DNA of 64,000 nucleotides, from the NCBI GenBank assembly GCA_036406295.1, contig DASWVJ010000054.1:8259-72258 (forward strand). Direction: 5' to 3'. The notes under the pieces are model-generated. The model did not search any database. It was given only the letters and a program-made list of their open reading frames with translations, and was not told the DNA's origin. The first letter of the stretch is position 1, and every line of letters begins with the position of its first letter. This document shows positions 47,367 through 53,591 of this stretch, piece by piece. Source of the stretch: Bradyrhizobium sp. GTDB taxonomy: Bacteria; Pseudomonadota; Alphaproteobacteria; Rhizobiales; Xanthobacteraceae. A program made the translations under genes and the position numbers.

Positions 47367-47535
47367 TGCGTTTCCCCTCGGCCGCGCCCGATTTTTTGAT
47401 TGTAATGTTCACGCGGCGCGGGACAGCCTAGTGGATCGATAGGAGGTCGGGAAGTAGCCGATAGTCGCGGCGAGCGGGCAGAGGCCGATAACACCGTGCG
47501 ATCAATTATGTTCCGCACCGCAAACGCATTTTCTC

Positions 47536-47549
47536 TTGATTTGTATCGA
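47536..47549 (+). promoter_or_regulatory. Possible FNR/FixK-type box upstream of the ior-sox operon
   Basis: TTGAT-TTGT-ATCGA, one mismatch to TTGAT-N4-ATCAA, about 65 bp upstream of ATG 47615. Confidence 0.4.
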
Positions 47550-47614
47550 CACACGCTCTGGTTCTAACGTCCCGCGCCGCTCAATCGATGGATTGGGCCA
47601 ATAGGGGACATGCG

Positions 47615-48067
47615 ATGGCAAACCTCAACATCAACGGCAAAGCCGTGAGCGTCGACGTCGAAGACGATACGCCGCTTCTTTGGGCGATCCGCGAGAACCT
47701 CGGATTGACGGGAACCAAATACGGATGCGGCATTGCACAATGCGGTGCCTGCACGGTCCATGTCGACGGCGTGGCGATGCGGTCCTGCGGTGTGACGGTC
47801 AGCGAAGCCGCCGGCAAGAAGATCGTCACCATCGAGGGTCTCGCCGGTCCCGACGGTACCCTGCACAAGGTGCAGCAGGCCTGGATCGCTAATGACGTGC
47901 CGCAATGCGGCTATTGCCAGACCGGCATGATCATGGCCGTGGCAGCGCTGCTCAACGACAAACCAAAACCGACCGACCAGGACATCAACGAGGCCATCAC
48001 CAATATCTGCCGCTGCGGCACCTTCCAGCAGGTGCGCGAGGCGATCCACGCGGCTGCGAGCGCCTGA
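47615..48067 (+). CDS. (2Fe-2S)-binding small subunit, IorA/CoxS-like
   Basis: [32 protein letters not shown]. Confidence 0.94.
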
Positions 48068-48079
48068 GGAGACTTGCCC

Positions 48080-50266
48080 ATGAACAAGCACGTCAAGCTC
48101 AGCCGCCGCTCCTTCGTCATCGGCTCCGCCGCCGCCGGCGCCGGCCTCGCCATCGGGTTCGATCTTCCGACCGGCGGCCCTAGCGTGGTGCGTGCCGCCG
48201 ACGGTTCGCCCGAGATCAATGTCTGGGTCGTGATCCGGCCCGACGACACCACCGTCATTCGCATCGCGCGTTCGGAAATGGGCCAGGGCACCCTCACCGG
48301 CCTTGCCCAGCTTGTCGCCGAGGAACTGGAATGTGACTGGTCGAAGGTGACGACCGAATATCCCACCCCCGGCCAGAGCGTCGCCCGCAAGCGCGCCTGG
48401 GGTGACTTCTCCACCGGCGGCAGCCGTGGCGTCCGCACCTCGCAGGACTATGTCCGCAAGGGGGGAGCCACCGCGCGCATGATGCTGATCCAGGCCGCCG
48501 CCAACGAGTGGAAGATGCCGGCTTCCGAATGCACCGCAGCCAACAGCGTCATTACCCATACGCCGTCGGGCCGGACGACGACCTACGGGAAGGTCGTTGA
48601 AGCCGCGGCCAAACTGGCGCCGCCAGCCGATGCCGAAGTCAAGCTGAAGGACCCCAAGGACTGGAAGATCGCCGGCAAGCCGCTCAAGCGGCTGGACACC
48701 GCCGACAAGACCACCGGCAAGATGACCTACGGCATCGACGTCAAGCTGCCGGGCATGCTCAACGCCGCGATCAAGGACTGCCCGGTATTCGGCGGCAAGC
48801 TGAAAAGCTACGACGAAGCCAAGGTCATGGGCATGAAGGGCGTCAAGAAGGTGTTGCGCGTCAACGACAGCACCGTCGCCGTGGTCGCCGACACCTGGTG
48901 GCGCGCCAAGACCGCACTCGAGGCACTGCCGATCGTCTGGGACGAAGGCCAAAACGCCAAGGTCTCCAGTGAATCGATCGCCAAGTGGCTGGCCGAGGGG
49001 CTCGACAACGCGCAGCCCGCCTACATCGGCAACCAGAACGGTGACGCCAAGGCTGCCATTGCCGCCGCTGCCAAGAAAGTCGAGGCGGTCTATAACTATC
49101 CGTACCAGAACCATGCGTGCATGGAGCCGCTGAACGCCACGGCACTCTACACGCCGGACAAGTGCGAGGTCTGGACCGGAACGCAAAATGGTGAGGCGGC
49201 ATTCGCCGCCGTGCTGGAAGTATCCGGCCTGCCCGCCGAGAAATGCGACGTTCACAAGCAGATCCTCGGCGGCGGCTTCGGCCGGCGCGGCATGACCGAC
49301 TATGTGCGGCAGGCGGTTGCCATCGCCAAGCAGATGCCCGGCACGCCGATCAAGCTGTTGTGGTCGCGCGAAGACGACATGCAGCACGGCACCTACCATC
49401 CCGTCACGCAATGCAAGCTGACCGGCGCGTTCGATGCCGACAACAATCTGACGGCGCTGCATTTCCGCCTGTCCGGACAATCCATCCTGTATTCGGTCCG
49501 GCCCGCGGCGCTGGAAAACGGCAAGGACACCGTCGCATTCCAGGGCCTCGCTCCACGCGGAGACTTTGCGATCGGCTATACCGTGCCGAACCTGCTGGTC
49601 GAGCATTCCATGCGCAACCCGCACGTTCCGCCCGGCTTCTGGCGCGGCGTCAATATCAATCCGAACGCGATCTATATGGAATGCTTCATGGATGAGCTGG
49701 CGCACGCGGTGGGCCAGGATCCGCTGGAGTTCCGGCGCAAGCTGATGTCGAAACATCCGAAGCACCTTGCCGTGCTCAATGCCGTTGCCGACAGGATCGG
49801 CTGGGGCAAGCCGGCGCCGCAAGGCGTCTATCGCGGCCTTGCGCAGATCATGGGCTACGGCAGTTACGTCGCCGGCGCCGCCGAAATCTCCGTTGTCGAC
49901 GGCAACAAGATCAAGGTGCACCGGATCGTCGCCTCCACCGATCCCGGCCATGTCGTCAATCCGGCGCAGATCGAGCGGCAGATCGCGGGCTCCTTTGTCT
50001 ACGGCCTGTCCGGCCTGTTCTACGGCGGATGTACGGTCAAGGACGGCCGGATCGAGCAGGCCAATTTCGACACCTACAATTCCATGCGCATCAGCGAGAT
50101 GCCGAAGGTGGAATCCGTCATCATGCCGAGCGGCGGCTTCTGGGGCGGTGTCGGCGAGCCGACGATCGGCGTCGCCGCGCCCGCGGTGCTCAATGCCTAC
50201 TTTGCGGCGACGGGCAAACGCATCCGTTCGGTGCCGCTGAGGGACCAGAACATTACCTTCGCCTGA
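48080..50266 (+). CDS. Molybdopterin-binding large subunit, isoquinoline 1-oxidoreductase beta (IorB)/aldehyde dehydrogenase-like, Tat-exported
   Basis: KLSRRSFV Tat motif; RSEMGQG, TGGSRGV, HACMEPLN, LGGGFGRR, WSREDD, FWRGV, GGVGEP. Confidence 0.93.
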   Translation: MNKHVKLSRRSFVIGSAAAGAGLAIGFDLPTGGPSVVRAADGSPEINVWVVIRPDDTTVIRIARSEMGQGTLTGLAQLVAEELECDWSKVTTEYPTPGQSVARKRAWGDFSTGGSRGVRTSQDYVRKGGATARMMLIQAAANEWKMPASECTAANSVITHTPSGRTTTYGKVVEAAAKLAPPADAEVKLKDPKDWKIAGKPLKRLDTADKTTGKMTYGIDVKLPGMLNAAIKDCPVFGGKLKSYDEAKVMGMKGVKKVLRVNDSTVAVVADTWWRAKTALEALPIVWDEGQNAKVSSESIAKWLAEGLDNAQPAYIGNQNGDAKAAIAAAAKKVEAVYNYPYQNHACMEPLNATALYTPDKCEVWTGTQNGEAAFAAVLEVSGLPAEKCDVHKQILGGGFGRRGMTDYVRQAVAIAKQMPGTPIKLLWSREDDMQHGTYHPVTQCKLTGAFDADNNLTALHFRLSGQSILYSVRPAALENGKDTVAFQGLAPRGDFAIGYTVPNLLVEHSMRNPHVPPGFWRGVNINPNAIYMECFMDELAHAVGQDPLEFRRKLMSKHPKHLAVLNAVADRIGWGKPAPQGVYRGLAQIMGYGSYVAGAAEISVVDGNKIKVHRIVASTDPGHVVNPAQIERQIAGSFVYGLSGLFYGGCTVKDGRIEQANFDTYNSMRISEMPKVESVIMPSGGFWGGVGEPTIGVAAPAVLNAYFAATGKRIRSVPLRDQNITFA

Positions 50267-50320
50267 CGTCATGGACGGCGGCGGCATCACGGCCGCCGCC
50301 CGTTCAGTTGGAATTCGCTC

Positions 50321-51595
50321 ATGCCGGTCACGCGCCTGCCGACGCGCAGAAATGCGGTTTTCGGCATCGCCAGCGCTGCGCTGGCGACCGCACTGCCCTG
50401 CCCGTCGCTGGCGCAGGCTGCGCCGCGTGTGGCCGTCATCGGCGGCGGCTTTGGCGGCGCGAACTGTGCGCGCGCGCTGAAGCGGCTCGACAGCAGGCTC
50501 GACGTGACGCTGATCGAGGCGAGCCGCAGTTTCGTATCCTGCCCGTTCAGCAACGAGATCATTGCCGGCTTGAGAGAATTCGAGTCGCAGCGCTTCAGCT
50601 ACGACGGCATTGCTGCCGACGGCATCAAGGTCGTGGCAAGCGCCGCCACGAAGGTCGATCCACAGGCGCGAACGATCGGTCTCGCCGATGGCGTCTCGAT
50701 CGACTACGACCGCCTCGTGCTCGCCCCCGGCATCGACATGCGCTTTGACGTCCTGCCCGGTTATGACGAGACCGCTTCCGAAAAGATGCCGCATGCCTGG
50801 AAGGCAGGCGAGCAGACGTTGCTGCTGAAGCGCCAGCTTGAAGCGATGAAGGATGGCGGCCTGGTGGTCGTCGCAGTGCCCGCCGCGCCCCTGCGCTGCC
50901 CGCCGGCGCCTTACGAGCGCGCCAGCCTGATCGCCCATTATCTGAAGACGAACAAGCCGCGCTCCAAGGTTCTGGTGCTCGACGCGAAGGACGGCTACTC
51001 GCAGCAGCAATTGTTCGAAGCCGCCTGGAAGGAACTCTATCCCGGCATGATCGAACGGATCGCATTGTCGCAAGGCGGCAGGGTCACCTCGGTCGATGTT
51101 TCGAGCGGCACCATCATCACCGAGTTCGGCAACTACACGGCCGATGTCGCCAACGTCATTCCGCCGCAGAGGGCGGGCCGCATCGCCGAGATTGCGGGCG
51201 CTGCCGACAGGACGGGCTGGTGCCCGATCGATCCCATTAGTTTCGGTTCGAAACTGGCGGCGAACATCCACGTCATCGGTGACGCCTGCCTCGCCGGCGG
51301 CATTCCGAAGTCCGCCTCCGCTGCCGCTGCACAAGGCAAGGCCTGCGCCGCGGCCATCGTGAACCTGCTTGCGGGAAAGCCGCTGGAGCCGCCGCGGCTG
51401 ACGGGCGCCTGCTACAATACGGTGGCGCCGGCTTACGCCTTCTCGCTCTCCGGCATCTATCAGCCCAAAGGCGACCAGTTCGCCGAGGTCGAAGTCAGGA
51501 CAAGTCCGCTTGAGGCGTCGCGCGAGACAAGGGCGCAGGAAGCGGAGAGCGCCCTGAACTGGTTCAAGGCGATCACGGGAGAGACCTTTGGCTAG
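50321..51595 (+). CDS. soxF: Flavocytochrome c sulfide dehydrogenase flavoprotein subunit (FccB/SoxF)
   Basis: Tat PTRRN; VIGGGFGG, SCPFSN, MPHAWKAG, RCPPAPYERASL, VIPPQRAG, IGDA..PKSA, ACYNTV, W..ITGETFG. Confidence 0.9.
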   Translation: MPVTRLPTRRNAVFGIASAALATALPCPSLAQAAPRVAVIGGGFGGANCARALKRLDSRLDVTLIEASRSFVSCPFSNEIIAGLREFESQRFSYDGIAADGIKVVASAATKVDPQARTIGLADGVSIDYDRLVLAPGIDMRFDVLPGYDETASEKMPHAWKAGEQTLLLKRQLEAMKDGGLVVVAVPAAPLRCPPAPYERASLIAHYLKTNKPRSKVLVLDAKDGYSQQQLFEAAWKELYPGMIERIALSQGGRVTSVDVSSGTIITEFGNYTADVANVIPPQRAGRIAEIAGAADRTGWCPIDPISFGSKLAANIHVIGDACLAGGIPKSASAAAAQGKACAAAIVNLLAGKPLEPPRLTGACYNTVAPAYAFSLSGIYQPKGDQFAEVEVRTSPLEASRETRAQEAESALNWFKAITGETFG

Positions 51596-52031
51596 GCCGA
51601 TCGCCTGTCTGGCCGCGGCGTTGGTCGCGCTTGGCAGCGCCGCCAGCGCGCAAGCGCTGCGCCCGTTCACCGTCGTGGGCGACGCCATCCCCGCTTCGCT
51701 CACCGCCACCGCCGGCGATGCGGCCCGCGGGCGCGCGCTCGTGGTGGAGCGCAGCAGCACCTGCATTCTCTGCCACAGCGGCCCGTTCCCGGAACAAAGT
51801 TTCCAGGGCGACGTTGCTCCCAGCCTTGCCGGCACCGGCAGCCGCTGGACCGAGGGTGAAATCCGGCTGCGCCTGGTCGACGCCTCGCGCTTCAATCCGG
51901 CAACCATCATGCCCTCCTACTACCGCATCGATGGATTGAGCCGCGTCGGCCGGGCATGGCAGGGCAAGCCGATCCTGACCGCCGAGCAGATCGAGGACAT
52001 CGTGGCGTATCTCGTCACGCTGCGCGAATAG
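51588..52031 (+). CDS. soxX: Sulfur oxidation c-type cytochrome SoxX
   Basis: GDAARGR, CILCH heme motif, GDVAPSLAG, NPATIMPSY, LTAEQIEDIVAYL. Confidence 0.9.
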   Translation: MARPIACLAAALVALGSAASAQALRPFTVVGDAIPASLTATAGDAARGRALVVERSSTCILCHSGPFPEQSFQGDVAPSLAGTGSRWTEGEIRLRLVDASRFNPATIMPSYYRIDGLSRVGRAWQGKPILTAEQIEDIVAYLVTLRE

Positions 52032-52039
52032 GAAGAGAG

Positions 52040-52498
52040 ATGGACGAATCCACGCGACGTGAATTTCTTGCCCTTGCCGGCGGCGCGGCGATGCTCGCGG
52101 TCACGCTGCGGCCGGCCGAGGCGACCCCTGCAACGATGGCGTCGGCCATCCGCAATGTCACAGGCAGCGAGCCGGTCAAGACGGGCAGGGTTAAGCTCGA
52201 TATCCCGCCGCTCGTCGAGAACGGCAACACCGTGCCGATGACGGTAAGTGTCGCAAGCCCGATGGCGCCGGAAGATCACGTCAAGAGCATCCACATCTTC
52301 AACGAGAAGAACCCGCAGCCGAACATCGGCAATTTCCATCTCTCTGCGCAGGCCGGCCGCGCCCAGGTCTCCACCCGCATCCGGCTGGCCGACAGCCAGA
52401 AGGTGGTCGCGATCGCAAAGCTGTCCGACGGCACGTTCTGGTCCGCCAGCGTCGATGTCGTGGTGACGCTCGCCGCCTGCACCGAGGAGGTGATCTGA
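52040..52498 (+). CDS. soxY: SoxY paralogue with non-canonical C-terminal arm (AACTE; AACIE-arm type)
   Basis: Tat STRREFL; PPLVENGNTVP, EKNPQP, STRIRLA; ends VVVTLAACTEEVI instead of VKVTIGGCGG. Confidence 0.88.
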   Translation: MDESTRREFLALAGGAAMLAVTLRPAEATPATMASAIRNVTGSEPVKTGRVKLDIPPLVENGNTVPMTVSVASPMAPEDHVKSIHIFNEKNPQPNIGNFHLSAQAGRAQVSTRIRLADSQKVVAIAKLSDGTFWSASVDVVVTLAACTEEVI

Positions 52499-52818
52499 TG
52501 CCCTCCGCCCTGATCAACGTCCCGGCCAAGGCCAAACGCGGCGACGTCATCGAGATCAAGACGCTGATGTCGCACATCATGGAAACCGGCTATCGCCATA
52601 CCTCATCAGGCGATTCCGTTCCGCGCGACATCATCACCAGCTTCACTTGCCGCTTCAACGGCAACGAAATCTTCCGCGCCGATCTTTTCCCGGCCATCGC
52701 GGCCAATCCCTTCTTCAGCTTTTTCACCACCGTAACGGAAAGCGGCAAGTTCGAGTTCGAGTGGGTCGGCGACAAGGGCTTTTCGGAAAGCGCCTCGGCC
52801 TCCATCACCGTCGAATGA
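52498..52818 (+). CDS. soxZ: Thiosulfate oxidation carrier complex protein SoxZ
   Basis: EIKTLMSHIMETGYR, IAANPFFSF, FEWVGDKG. Confidence 0.9.
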   Translation: MPSALINVPAKAKRGDVIEIKTLMSHIMETGYRHTSSGDSVPRDIITSFTCRFNGNEIFRADLFPAIAANPFFSFFTTVTESGKFEFEWVGDKGFSESASASITVE

Positions 52819-53591
52819 GCCTTGCGCGGACCATAGCCATCGCCGGAGTATTGATCGCGACGGCCGTTGCCGCCGGCGAAATCCCGCAAGAACAGCGCCG
52901 GTCCGGCTTCAGCTTCATGACGCCGGAAACGCAGACCATGCAGAACGACGACACCGCCAATCCCGGCATGCTCTGGGTGCTCGACGGCGAGGCGTTGTGG
53001 AAGCGCAAGGCCGGCACAGCGCAGAAGGCCTGCGCCGATTGCCATGGCGATGCCGCTGCCAGCATGAAGGGCGTCGCCGCCCGCTACCCCGCGTTCGACA
53101 AGACGCCGGGCCACCCCGTCGATCTCGAGCAGCGCATCAATCTGTGCCGCACCAGCCAGCAGCAGGCGCCGCCACTGGCCTACGAGGGCCACGACCTGCT
53201 CGCGCTCACCGCCTTCGTCGCCCGGCAATCGCGCGGCAGCCCGATCGAGGCCGGCACCGACCCGCAGCTGGCGCCGTTCATCGCCAAAGGCCGCGCGCTC
53301 TACACCCAGCGGCAGGGCCAGCTCAATCTCGCCTGCAGCAATTGCCATGAGGACGTCTGGGACAAGCGGTTGGCGGGAGCGGCGATCACGCAGGGACACG
53401 CGACGGGCTATCCGCTCTACCGCCTGGAGTGGCAGACGCTTGGCTCGCTGCAGCGGCGGCTGCGGGCCTGCCTGATCGGCATCCGGGCGCAGGCCTATGA
53501 CTTTGGCTCCTCCGAACTGGTTGAACTCGAGCTCTATCTGATGTCGCGCGCACGCGGCATGCCGATGGAGGCACCGGCGGTCCGGCCCTAG
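52815..53591 (+). CDS. soxA: Sulfur oxidation c-type cytochrome SoxA (diheme)
   Basis: MQNDDTANPGMLWV, CADCH, QRINLCR, RQGQLNLACSNCH, YPLYRLEWQ, QRRLRAC (active-site Cys), PAVRP. Confidence 0.92.
   Translation: MSLARTIAIAGVLIATAVAAGEIPQEQRRSGFSFMTPETQTMQNDDTANPGMLWVLDGEALWKRKAGTAQKACADCHGDAAASMKGVAARYPAFDKTPGHPVDLEQRINLCRTSQQQAPPLAYEGHDLLALTAFVARQSRGSPIEAGTDPQLAPFIAKGRALYTQRQGQLNLACSNCHEDVWDKRLAGAAITQGHATGYPLYRLEWQTLGSLQRRLRACLIGIRAQAYDFGSSELVELELYLMSRARGMPMEAPAVRP

Follow-up and report, generated by a model that had tools for sequence, protein, structure and literature searches.

The 64,000-nucleotide stretch of Bradyrhizobium sp. DNA analysed here (the window; contig DASWVJ010000054.1 of assembly GCA_036406295.1) carries seven co-oriented plus-strand genes at 47588-53591, in which a two-subunit molybdenum enzyme belonging to the xanthine oxidase (XO) family, IorAB, is joined to a set of Sox proteins. 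According to the open reading frame (ORF) map the order is iorA, iorB, fccB/soxF, soxX, soxY*, soxZ and soxA, soxY* being a gene for a SoxY-related carrier with a different cysteine arm. The operon represents a single occurrence of a periplasmic module that is conserved, self-contained and independent of the canonical Sox enzymes, and the pairing of the molybdenum enzyme with the Sox carrier is real and conserved in both directions across many families. What the module does is a more tentative matter. We read it as a periplasmic sulfur-oxidising module in which IorAB would act on carrier-bound sulfur in place of SoxB and SoxCD, with a docking that is predicted from a model and a chemistry that is conjectural, and we rate this reading as falling slightly short of an even chance.

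Linkage of iorAB to soxY*Z

Within the genus, a soxY of the TIGR04487 class was found in 29 of the 36 sampled genomes, and 26 of these 29 have an IorB orthologue with 81-89% identity some 4 kb upstream of it, on one contig and strand with it. That leaves a too-fragmented assembly, a genome with an adjacent fragment and a genome with a pseudogenised copy (G031). The decayed copy in the last of these (G031:C2:1504825-1507956) has an iorB with two in-frame TGA codons that matches residues 448-730 only, and its soxY* match starts from model position 39. Beyond the genus, 400 genomes were drawn evenly from each of three groups: the phylum, the class Alphaproteobacteria and the class of a betaproteobacterium-like carrier. 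Here 33 genomes had an AAC-arm soxY, and iorA-iorB was situated directly upstream in the same orientation in 29 of the 31 that could be assessed. The remaining four genomes (two with contig ends, two without adjacency) all hold an IorB orthologue of 62-71% identity elsewhere, so that the orthologue is present in 33 of 33. As a control, iorAB was beside none of the six GGC-arm soxY loci that these searches also returned, and four of the six had SoxB, SoxC or both beside them.

The linkage holds also when the search is started from the enzyme. Scanning an IorB alignment against one genome per GTDB species gave 79 loci, in which soxX-soxY*-soxZ-soxA followed downstream in 58 and soxY*Z only in four, while 13 were cut by contig or flank ends and four had no sox gene within 7 kb; thus, soxY*Z is downstream in 62 of the 66 assessable loci. 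The hosts are soil and freshwater heterotrophs, including Bradyrhizobium, Tardiphaga, Pseudolabrys and other Xanthobacteraceae, Microvirga, Mesorhizobium, Bosea, Azospirillum, Inquilinus, Hyphomicrobiaceae, and metagenome-assembled genomes (MAGs) of Burkholderiales and Nitrosomonadales. The titles of three MAG records (L091, L109, L126) name Chitinophaga pinensis, Bordetella parapertussis and Synechococcus sp.; the modules in them nest among proteobacterial IorBs, and the labels or binning of these records look unreliable. Altogether, about 6% of the alphaproteobacterial species sampled and most Bradyrhizobium carry the module, in most cases with no SoxB.

The core of the module is iorA, iorB, soxY* and soxZ, with soxX and soxA nearly always present. 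About two thirds of the examined loci also have fccB, which mostly lies between iorB and soxX and in some cases follows soxA. No further conserved neighbour (regulator, transporter or hydrolase) was found in two all-against-all clusterings of flanking ORFs, which returned the core genes, fccA, antisense shadow ORFs and generic ATP-binding cassette (ABC) ATPases. What follows the soxY*Z-only modules varies from locus to locus: TctC receptors, one TauD and a GGDEF protein are encoded there. These four modules indicate that the carrier is the tightest partner of IorAB. A preliminary description of the window, made from its sequence, had asked whether AAC-arm SoxY travels with iorAB and fccB across taxa, and had supposed a system distinct from the standard Sox pathway. 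For iorAB the answer is yes from either side, for fccB it is yes in part, and the supposition agrees with both the two-way linkage and the lack of SoxB in most module genomes.

That lack was assessed with TIGR04486 at E <= 1e-100 for SoxB and with matches at 1e-40 for SoxC/SorA-like proteins. Of the 33 module genomes outside the genus, 23 gave no SoxB match; among the 28 of them that are at least 90% complete the number without one was 20, and 12 of the 33 had neither SoxB nor a SoxC/SorA-like match. At the same time the module proteins are well conserved across families (mean column identity 72% for IorB, 52% for SoxY* and 62% for SoxZ), with intact frames in more than 30 genera. The existence of hosts without SoxB shows that the module cannot be a general helper of SoxB/SoxCD and, with this conservation, tells strongly against a decaying duplicate.

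The genome from which the window originates, a MAG of 4.95 Mb in 406 contigs (83% complete, contamination estimate 1.26%), does have canonical sox genes. The preliminary description had given the module as lacking soxB and soxCD, and this stands for the 64-kb window, in which no SoxB or SoxC homologue was found, but not for the genome, where soxB occurs twice and soxC once. Contig C304 (L010:7805-12725) holds soxC, soxB, soxZ, a GGCGG-arm soxY and soxA, and contig C201 (L011:8037-11600) a second GGCGG-arm soxY, soxA and a soxB whose product is 48% identical to the C304 SoxB. The two divergent loci could be two real systems or binning admixture. No iorAB was found beside either of them, which makes the iorAB-sox operon an extra and different set. 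The search for canonical sox genes elsewhere in the genome, likewise proposed beforehand, thereby returned a positive answer.

Gene products and the predicted carrier-enzyme complex

The features of the operon are the following; successive genes are separated by gaps of 6, 54 and 8 bp or overlap by 8, 1 and 4 bp.

47367..47587, no strand assigned: presumed operon promoter region, the intergenic stretch between a divergent ABC-transporter operon and iorA (ORF map and sequence)
47588..48067 (alternative start 47615), plus strand: iorA, small subunit with two [2Fe-2S] clusters and without signal peptide (Fer2_2 6e-28, Fer2 4e-10)
48074..50266, plus strand: iorB, molybdopterin-binding large subunit of IorB/AldH type, predicted twin-arginine translocation (Tat) export (MoCoBD_1 2.5e-33, MoCoBD_2 1.3e-26)
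50321..51595, plus strand: fccB/soxF, flavoprotein, predicted Tat export (FCSD_central, PF21706, 4e-45; FCSD-flav_bind, PF09242, 2.8e-16)
51588..52031, plus strand: soxX, monohaem cytochrome c (TIGR04485 76.5 bits, cut-off 61)
52040..52498, plus strand: soxY*, carrier with the arm ...VTLAAC147TEEVI, predicted Tat export (TIGR04487 230 bits, cut-off 172)
52498..52818, plus strand: soxZ, partner of SoxY* (PF08770 1.5e-27; TIGR04490 88 bits, cut-off 76)
52815..53591, plus strand: soxA, dihaem cytochrome c with both cysteine haem ligands (TIGR04484 230 bits, cut-off 110)

IorB (LSRRSF), FccB (PTRRNAVF) and SoxY* (STRREFL) each contain a twin-arginine motif, and there is one CxxCH motif in SoxX and there are two in SoxA. 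The ORF map together with Pfam and NCBIfam thus bears out the original picture of seven tightly packed, co-oriented genes with Tat and haem motifs.

SoxX, SoxZ and SoxA all score above the curated cut-offs of the models for true Sox proteins. SoxY* stays below the true-SoxY model TIGR04488 (114.6 against a cut-off of 125) and does not have the canonical GGCGG arm. Its Ala146 and Cys147 are invariant in 32 copies, and every soxY adjoining this IorB clade encodes the arm VT(L/I)(A/G/S)(A/S)C(T/L/I/V)(E/D) or a close variant. In SoxA, C73xxCH, Cys111, C174xxCH, Cys219 and Arg214/215 are at least 95% conserved over 35 copies, and with the conserved C59xxCH and Met108 of SoxX this gives the haem set of a SoxXA. 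SoxY* matches in protein searches are dominated by near-identical Bradyrhizobium sequences from soil metagenomes.

The product of fccB in the window is SoxF-like, with conserved Cys74, Cys193 and Cys364 that we take to be the FAD-binding cysteine and the redox pair of the flavocytochrome c sulfide dehydrogenase family. No fccA was found in the 54-bp gap between iorB and fccB nor anywhere in the MAG. About 32 related loci have, ahead of fccB, a gene for a monohaem cytochrome c of some 100 aa that carries the conserved motif MDRIAKGF (for example L085:9194-9511), and it probably encodes the FccA partner. This small cytochrome has been kept in most modules outside Bradyrhizobium and lost from most Bradyrhizobium loci, the window included.

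IorAB has the domains expected of an XO-family molybdenum cofactor (Moco) and [2Fe-2S] enzyme (PF02738, PF20256, PF01799 and PF00111), and all eight cluster cysteines of IorA are at least 95% conserved in 29 module copies. The closest solved structure to IorB is the large subunit of a membrane-bound aldehyde dehydrogenase (8GY3_C, residues 7-726, E 1.7e-79). Invariant in 28 orthologues are RR, GGGFGRR (including G399-G403), R524-G525 of FWRG and the presumed catalytic Glu695 of a GEP motif; Glu695 and the GGGFG and xRGxG Moco motifs presumably correspond to residues of bovine XO. Scores of IorB against the NCBIfam equivalog models are all far below the cut-offs, and neither isoquinoline nor aldehyde can be assigned as a substrate from them. 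Neither a trihaem cytochrome nor an FAD-subunit gene is found in the module.

Maximum-likelihood analysis unites the sox-linked IorBs, that of the window included, in a single clade of 74 rows (Shimodaira-Hasegawa-like approximate likelihood ratio test 100). Four unlinked Bradyrhizobium IorB paralogues with 61% identity are sister to it, and the classical paralogue with 40% identity falls outside. The iorAB pairs of the sister clade (L020-L023, from four Bradyrhizobium genomes) stand alone, with no sox and no cytochrome gene nearby. Some loci carry iorAB more than once: in one, iorAB-soxY*Z is followed by a second, more divergent iorAB-soxXY*ZA (L096:7001-14900), another has three consecutive iorAB pairs (L087:6500-16175), and in two others (L100, L113) two pairs lie ahead of fccB. 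The second iorAB copies of the tandem loci are a separate deep branch in the IorB tree. In one alphaproteobacterium (G184; L016:11869-15168), soxA is followed by an XdhC-MocA fusion, an anion (sulfite) exporter of the TauE/SafE family and MoaA, an arrangement not conserved at other module loci; it hints at a sulfurated molybdopterin cytosine dinucleotide cofactor and at a sulfur oxyanion crossing the membrane nearby.

A physical contact between carrier and enzyme was approached by complex prediction, with mature IorB as the scored partner and SoxY* and SoxZ each entered as an alignment. The interaction prediction score from aligned errors (ipSAE) was 0.61 (0.58-0.65 between runs), compared with 0.00 for the best of three controls. 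In a calibration that is only roughly valid for custom alignments, this mark is attained by 58 out of 80 complexes with a solved structure but by 2 out of 110 pairs that were mismatched. At least 84% of contacts are common to the runs, and the partner has a predicted local distance difference test score of at least 86. On the carrier side the predicted interface comprises SoxY* 143-148 (including Cys147), 150-152 and the 56-62 loop, together with SoxZ 32-40; on the IorB side it comprises 99-113, 372-388, 406/408, 471-490, 513-516, 522 and 526, of which Gly406 follows GGGFGRR and Val526 follows FWRG. To our knowledge no complex of an XO-family enzyme with SoxYZ has been solved, and it is therefore unlikely that the score reflects a memorised structure. 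The prediction supports the view that the SoxY* arm may enter the molybdenum funnel of IorB. Among the checks put forward earlier was a multimer prediction of IorB with SoxYZ, and the modelled Cys147 arm at the IorB funnel is what it returned. In a comparison of IorB residues by clade and by arm type, the unlinked sister clade shares most of the predicted interface residues, and the substitutions that accompany non-acidic arms are confounded by phylogeny.

A possible route for sulfur and its alternatives

A catalytic-type SoxXA, a sulfide-dehydrogenase flavoprotein that often comes with a cytochrome, and a cysteine carrier point together to reduced inorganic sulfur. In view of the intact haem motifs of SoxA and SoxX, the FccB cysteines and the fccA gene in about 32 loci, a sulfur substrate is favoured on these sequence grounds. 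That IorAB in turn processes the carrier-bound species is suggested by how strictly it is paired with SoxY*Z, by the modules that have soxY*Z alone, by the lack of SoxB and by the docking. In such a route, FccB (with FccA in many relatives) would oxidise sulfide, and SoxXA* would oxidatively couple a sulfur anion (sulfide, polysulfide or thiosulfate) to Cys147 of SoxY*. The loaded SoxY*Z would then dock on IorB with its arm inserted into the molybdenum funnel, where the Mo centre would add water-derived oxygen to the tethered (sulfane) sulfur, and IorA, with its two [2Fe-2S] clusters, would hand the electrons on to c-type cytochromes such as SoxXA or FccA. Release of the oxidised sulfur would not need SoxB (an unstable S-sulfinate might for example give off sulfite), and the carrier would be regenerated. 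The identity of the substrate, the chemistry at molybdenum, the product and the electron route are all inferred.

If the sulfur-oxidising reading is correct, XO-family chemistry extends to a protein-tethered substrate that is not carbon, and abundant soil, rhizosphere and freshwater bacteria have an unrecognised route of sulfur oxidation. Sox-linked IorAB would then be the first XO-family enzyme acting on protein-tethered sulfur, and the module a third route independent of SoxB/SoxCD, widespread in Alphaproteobacteria that are scored as Sox-less; this larger claim is conceivable, but we lean against it. Surveys score sulfur oxidation by soxB, soxCD, dsr and sHdr, and so the module is overlooked. 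With six to eight genes, soluble proteins and hosts that are culturable and partly tractable (Bradyrhizobium diazoefficiens, Starkeya novella), the system is directly testable.

Several points weigh against the sulfur-oxidising reading. We know of no XO-family enzyme that oxygenates sulfur or uses a protein-tethered substrate, as the known ones hydroxylate sp2 carbon, and the proposed S-oxygenation at Mo would thus be without precedent in the family. The route also requires the product to come off the carrier without a hydrolase. Near the four modules that have soxY*Z alone, neither a cytochrome nor an enzyme that could load the carrier is obvious. The funnel in the docking model is placed through Gly406 and Val526, which we take to be the counterparts of the substrate-pocket walls Glu802 and Phe914 in bovine XO from motif alignment, and the model was assessed from contact lists instead of coordinates. 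An arm docked in the funnel is also equally compatible with re-sulfuration of the Mo centre. Lastly, the SoxXA2 and SoxYZ2 proteins of the related cluster in Starkeya novella were undetected and their transcripts very low on thiosulfate, methanol and glucose (Kappler and Nouwens 2013, PMC3797975). This suggests that thiosulfate may be neither inducer nor substrate, and as the main substrate or inducer of the module we consider it unlikely.

The substrate could alternatively be organic, as the preliminary description had imagined with an organosulfur or thio-heterocyclic compound. SoxXA* would tether an organic or heterocyclic thiol to the carrier as a mixed disulfide, IorAB would hydroxylate its carbon, and C-S cleavage would leave a persulfide on SoxY* to be cleared by FccB/SoxXA. 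IorAB would so remain a carbon hydroxylase, in line with an IorB family that includes N-heterocycle and aldehyde oxidoreductases, and the arm docking and strict linkage fit equally well, as does the life of the hosts as soil and freshwater heterotrophs. However, no transporter, regulator or organic-catabolism gene is conserved beside the module, FccAB as a sulfide dehydrogenase points to inorganic sulfur, and SoxAX is known from textbooks with inorganic sulfur anions only. We consider an organic substrate unlikely.

The Sox proteins might instead serve the enzyme. XO-family enzymes need a cyanolysable sulfido ligand, and a SoxY*Z loaded with persulfide, helped by SoxXA/FccB, could re-insert the Mo=S ligand in the periplasm, beyond the reach of the cytoplasmic XdhC, while IorAB oxidises a free aldehyde or heterocycle. 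An arm modelled inside the Mo funnel is what such a repair factor would need, and the minimal iorAB-soxY*Z modules fit an enzyme with its repair factor. On the other hand, XdhC chaperones were present in five of five module genomes tested, and in one of these hosts (G355) the sox-linked IorB is the sole XO-family large subunit and so presumably served by XdhC; the XdhC-MocA fusion after soxA in G184 speaks in the same direction. Periplasmic IorAB paralogues of the clades with 61% and 40% identity do without an adjacent SoxYZ, and without SoxB, SoxXA together with thiosulfate would yield a thiosulfonate and not a persulfide. A maintenance role thus seems improbable to us. Both the replacement of SoxB/CD and the re-sulfuration had been among the options offered at the outset, and both would fit the docking model.

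It is also conceivable that the cytochromes are there for electron transfer, with SoxXA (and FccA) standing in for the trihaem cytochrome of an IorAB-type aldehyde dehydrogenase and SoxY*Z having a separate role. Downstream of the classical IorAB paralogue (40% identity) lies a gene for a trihaem cytochrome c, whereas the sox-linked clade has none after iorAB, and 8GY3 comprises three subunits, one of them a cytochrome. Yet the four modules without soxXA keep soxY*Z, SoxA retains the signature of a Cys-ligated catalytic haem that plain electron transfer would not need, and the model docks the carrier arm in the funnel, all of which makes this wiring quite unlikely. A redundant or decaying duplicate of canonical sox without function, as considered for S. 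novella, has for it the very low expression there (PMC3797975), the dispensability of soxY2 for thiosulfate oxidation as mentioned in PMC5748708 and the pseudogenised copy in G031, but we find it very improbable given the intact frames and catalytic residues in more than 30 genera at the identities stated above, the 20 of 28 near-complete module genomes that have no SoxB to duplicate, and an arm motif that differs and is yet itself conserved.

Known relatives and surroundings of the locus

The preliminary description regarded the module as the best candidate for an undescribed system in the window. This cannot be upheld, since the gene cluster was already reported in 2013 and the carrier family is named in TIGR04487. 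In S. novella, a second sox cluster, soxX2Y2Z2A2F2 (Snov_1982-1977), is accompanied by an XO-family Mo enzyme (Snov_1975/1976), and the role of this cluster was left open (Kappler and Nouwens 2013, PMC3797975). It shares with the present locus SoxXA, SoxYZ, a SoxF-like flavocytochrome and the two-subunit XO-family enzyme, lacks soxB and soxCD, and is a second locus beside a complete sox. The difference is in fccA, which is missing in the window, and in the scope of that paper, which concerns one genome and does not include the AAC arm, the linkage across taxa or the hosts without SoxB. In Bradyrhizobium diazoefficiens, soxY1 alone was needed for thiosulfate oxidation and soxY2 was not, according to a passage in PMC5748708 that cites Masuda 2010; we infer that soxY2 is the AAC-arm copy, with support from locus L081. 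Bradyrhizobium-like sox genes are also known from Polynucleobacter (Hahn et al. 2012). A full-text literature search found no paper on the function of the module or on its linkage across taxa, and a search for the 8GY3 structure found no paper on it. New here are the count of hosts without SoxB, the soxY*Z-only modules, the fccA component, the clade structure of IorB, the XdhC context and the docking model.

Compared with canonical Sox of the Paracoccus pantotrophus type, the module has the same Cys-ligated SoxXA, cysteine-arm SoxYZ, optional SoxF and periplasmic location, but its arm is VTLAAC(T/I/L/V)(E/D) instead of GGCGG, it has no SoxB or sulfite-oxidase-family SoxCD, and an XO-family enzyme is its constant partner. 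SoxY* matches the 'SoxY-related AACIE arm protein' of TIGR04487 with Thr in place of Ile, that family being a naming model only. IorAB resembles the IorAB/AldFGH hydroxylases (isoquinoline 1-oxidoreductase; 8GY3) in its small subunit with two [2Fe-2S] clusters, its Tat-exported Moco large subunit and its permuted domain order, while the sox-linked type differs from them in being without a trihaem cytochrome gene, forming its own clade, lying beside soxY*Z and possibly having a protein-tethered substrate. The quinoprotein dehydrogenase-associated SoxYZ-like carrier of TIGR04557 is, by its family name, likewise a SoxYZ-like carrier tied to a non-Sox periplasmic dehydrogenase, but SoxY and SoxZ are fused there, the partner is a pyrroloquinoline quinone enzyme, and SoxY* scores weakly (63.7 bits against a cut-off of 140). 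With respect to FccAB, the window has the features of FccB but not the FccA subunit. The locus is best filed as a regular representative of a module that is unusual, conserved and uncharacterised, a variant of the Sox carrier principle with an XO-family partner.

The operon is flanked upstream by the divergent ABC-transporter operon and downstream by a convergent gene for a DegP-like protease. A scan of the operon for promoter and terminator consensus sequences gave nothing useful, and in it no sigma-70 match was found for the presumed promoter region. The minus strand has an ORF of 1448 aa at 47564-51910 that runs antisense to iorA-soxX within DNA of 65% G+C; it is most likely a shadow ORF, and comparable antisense ORFs recur at related loci.

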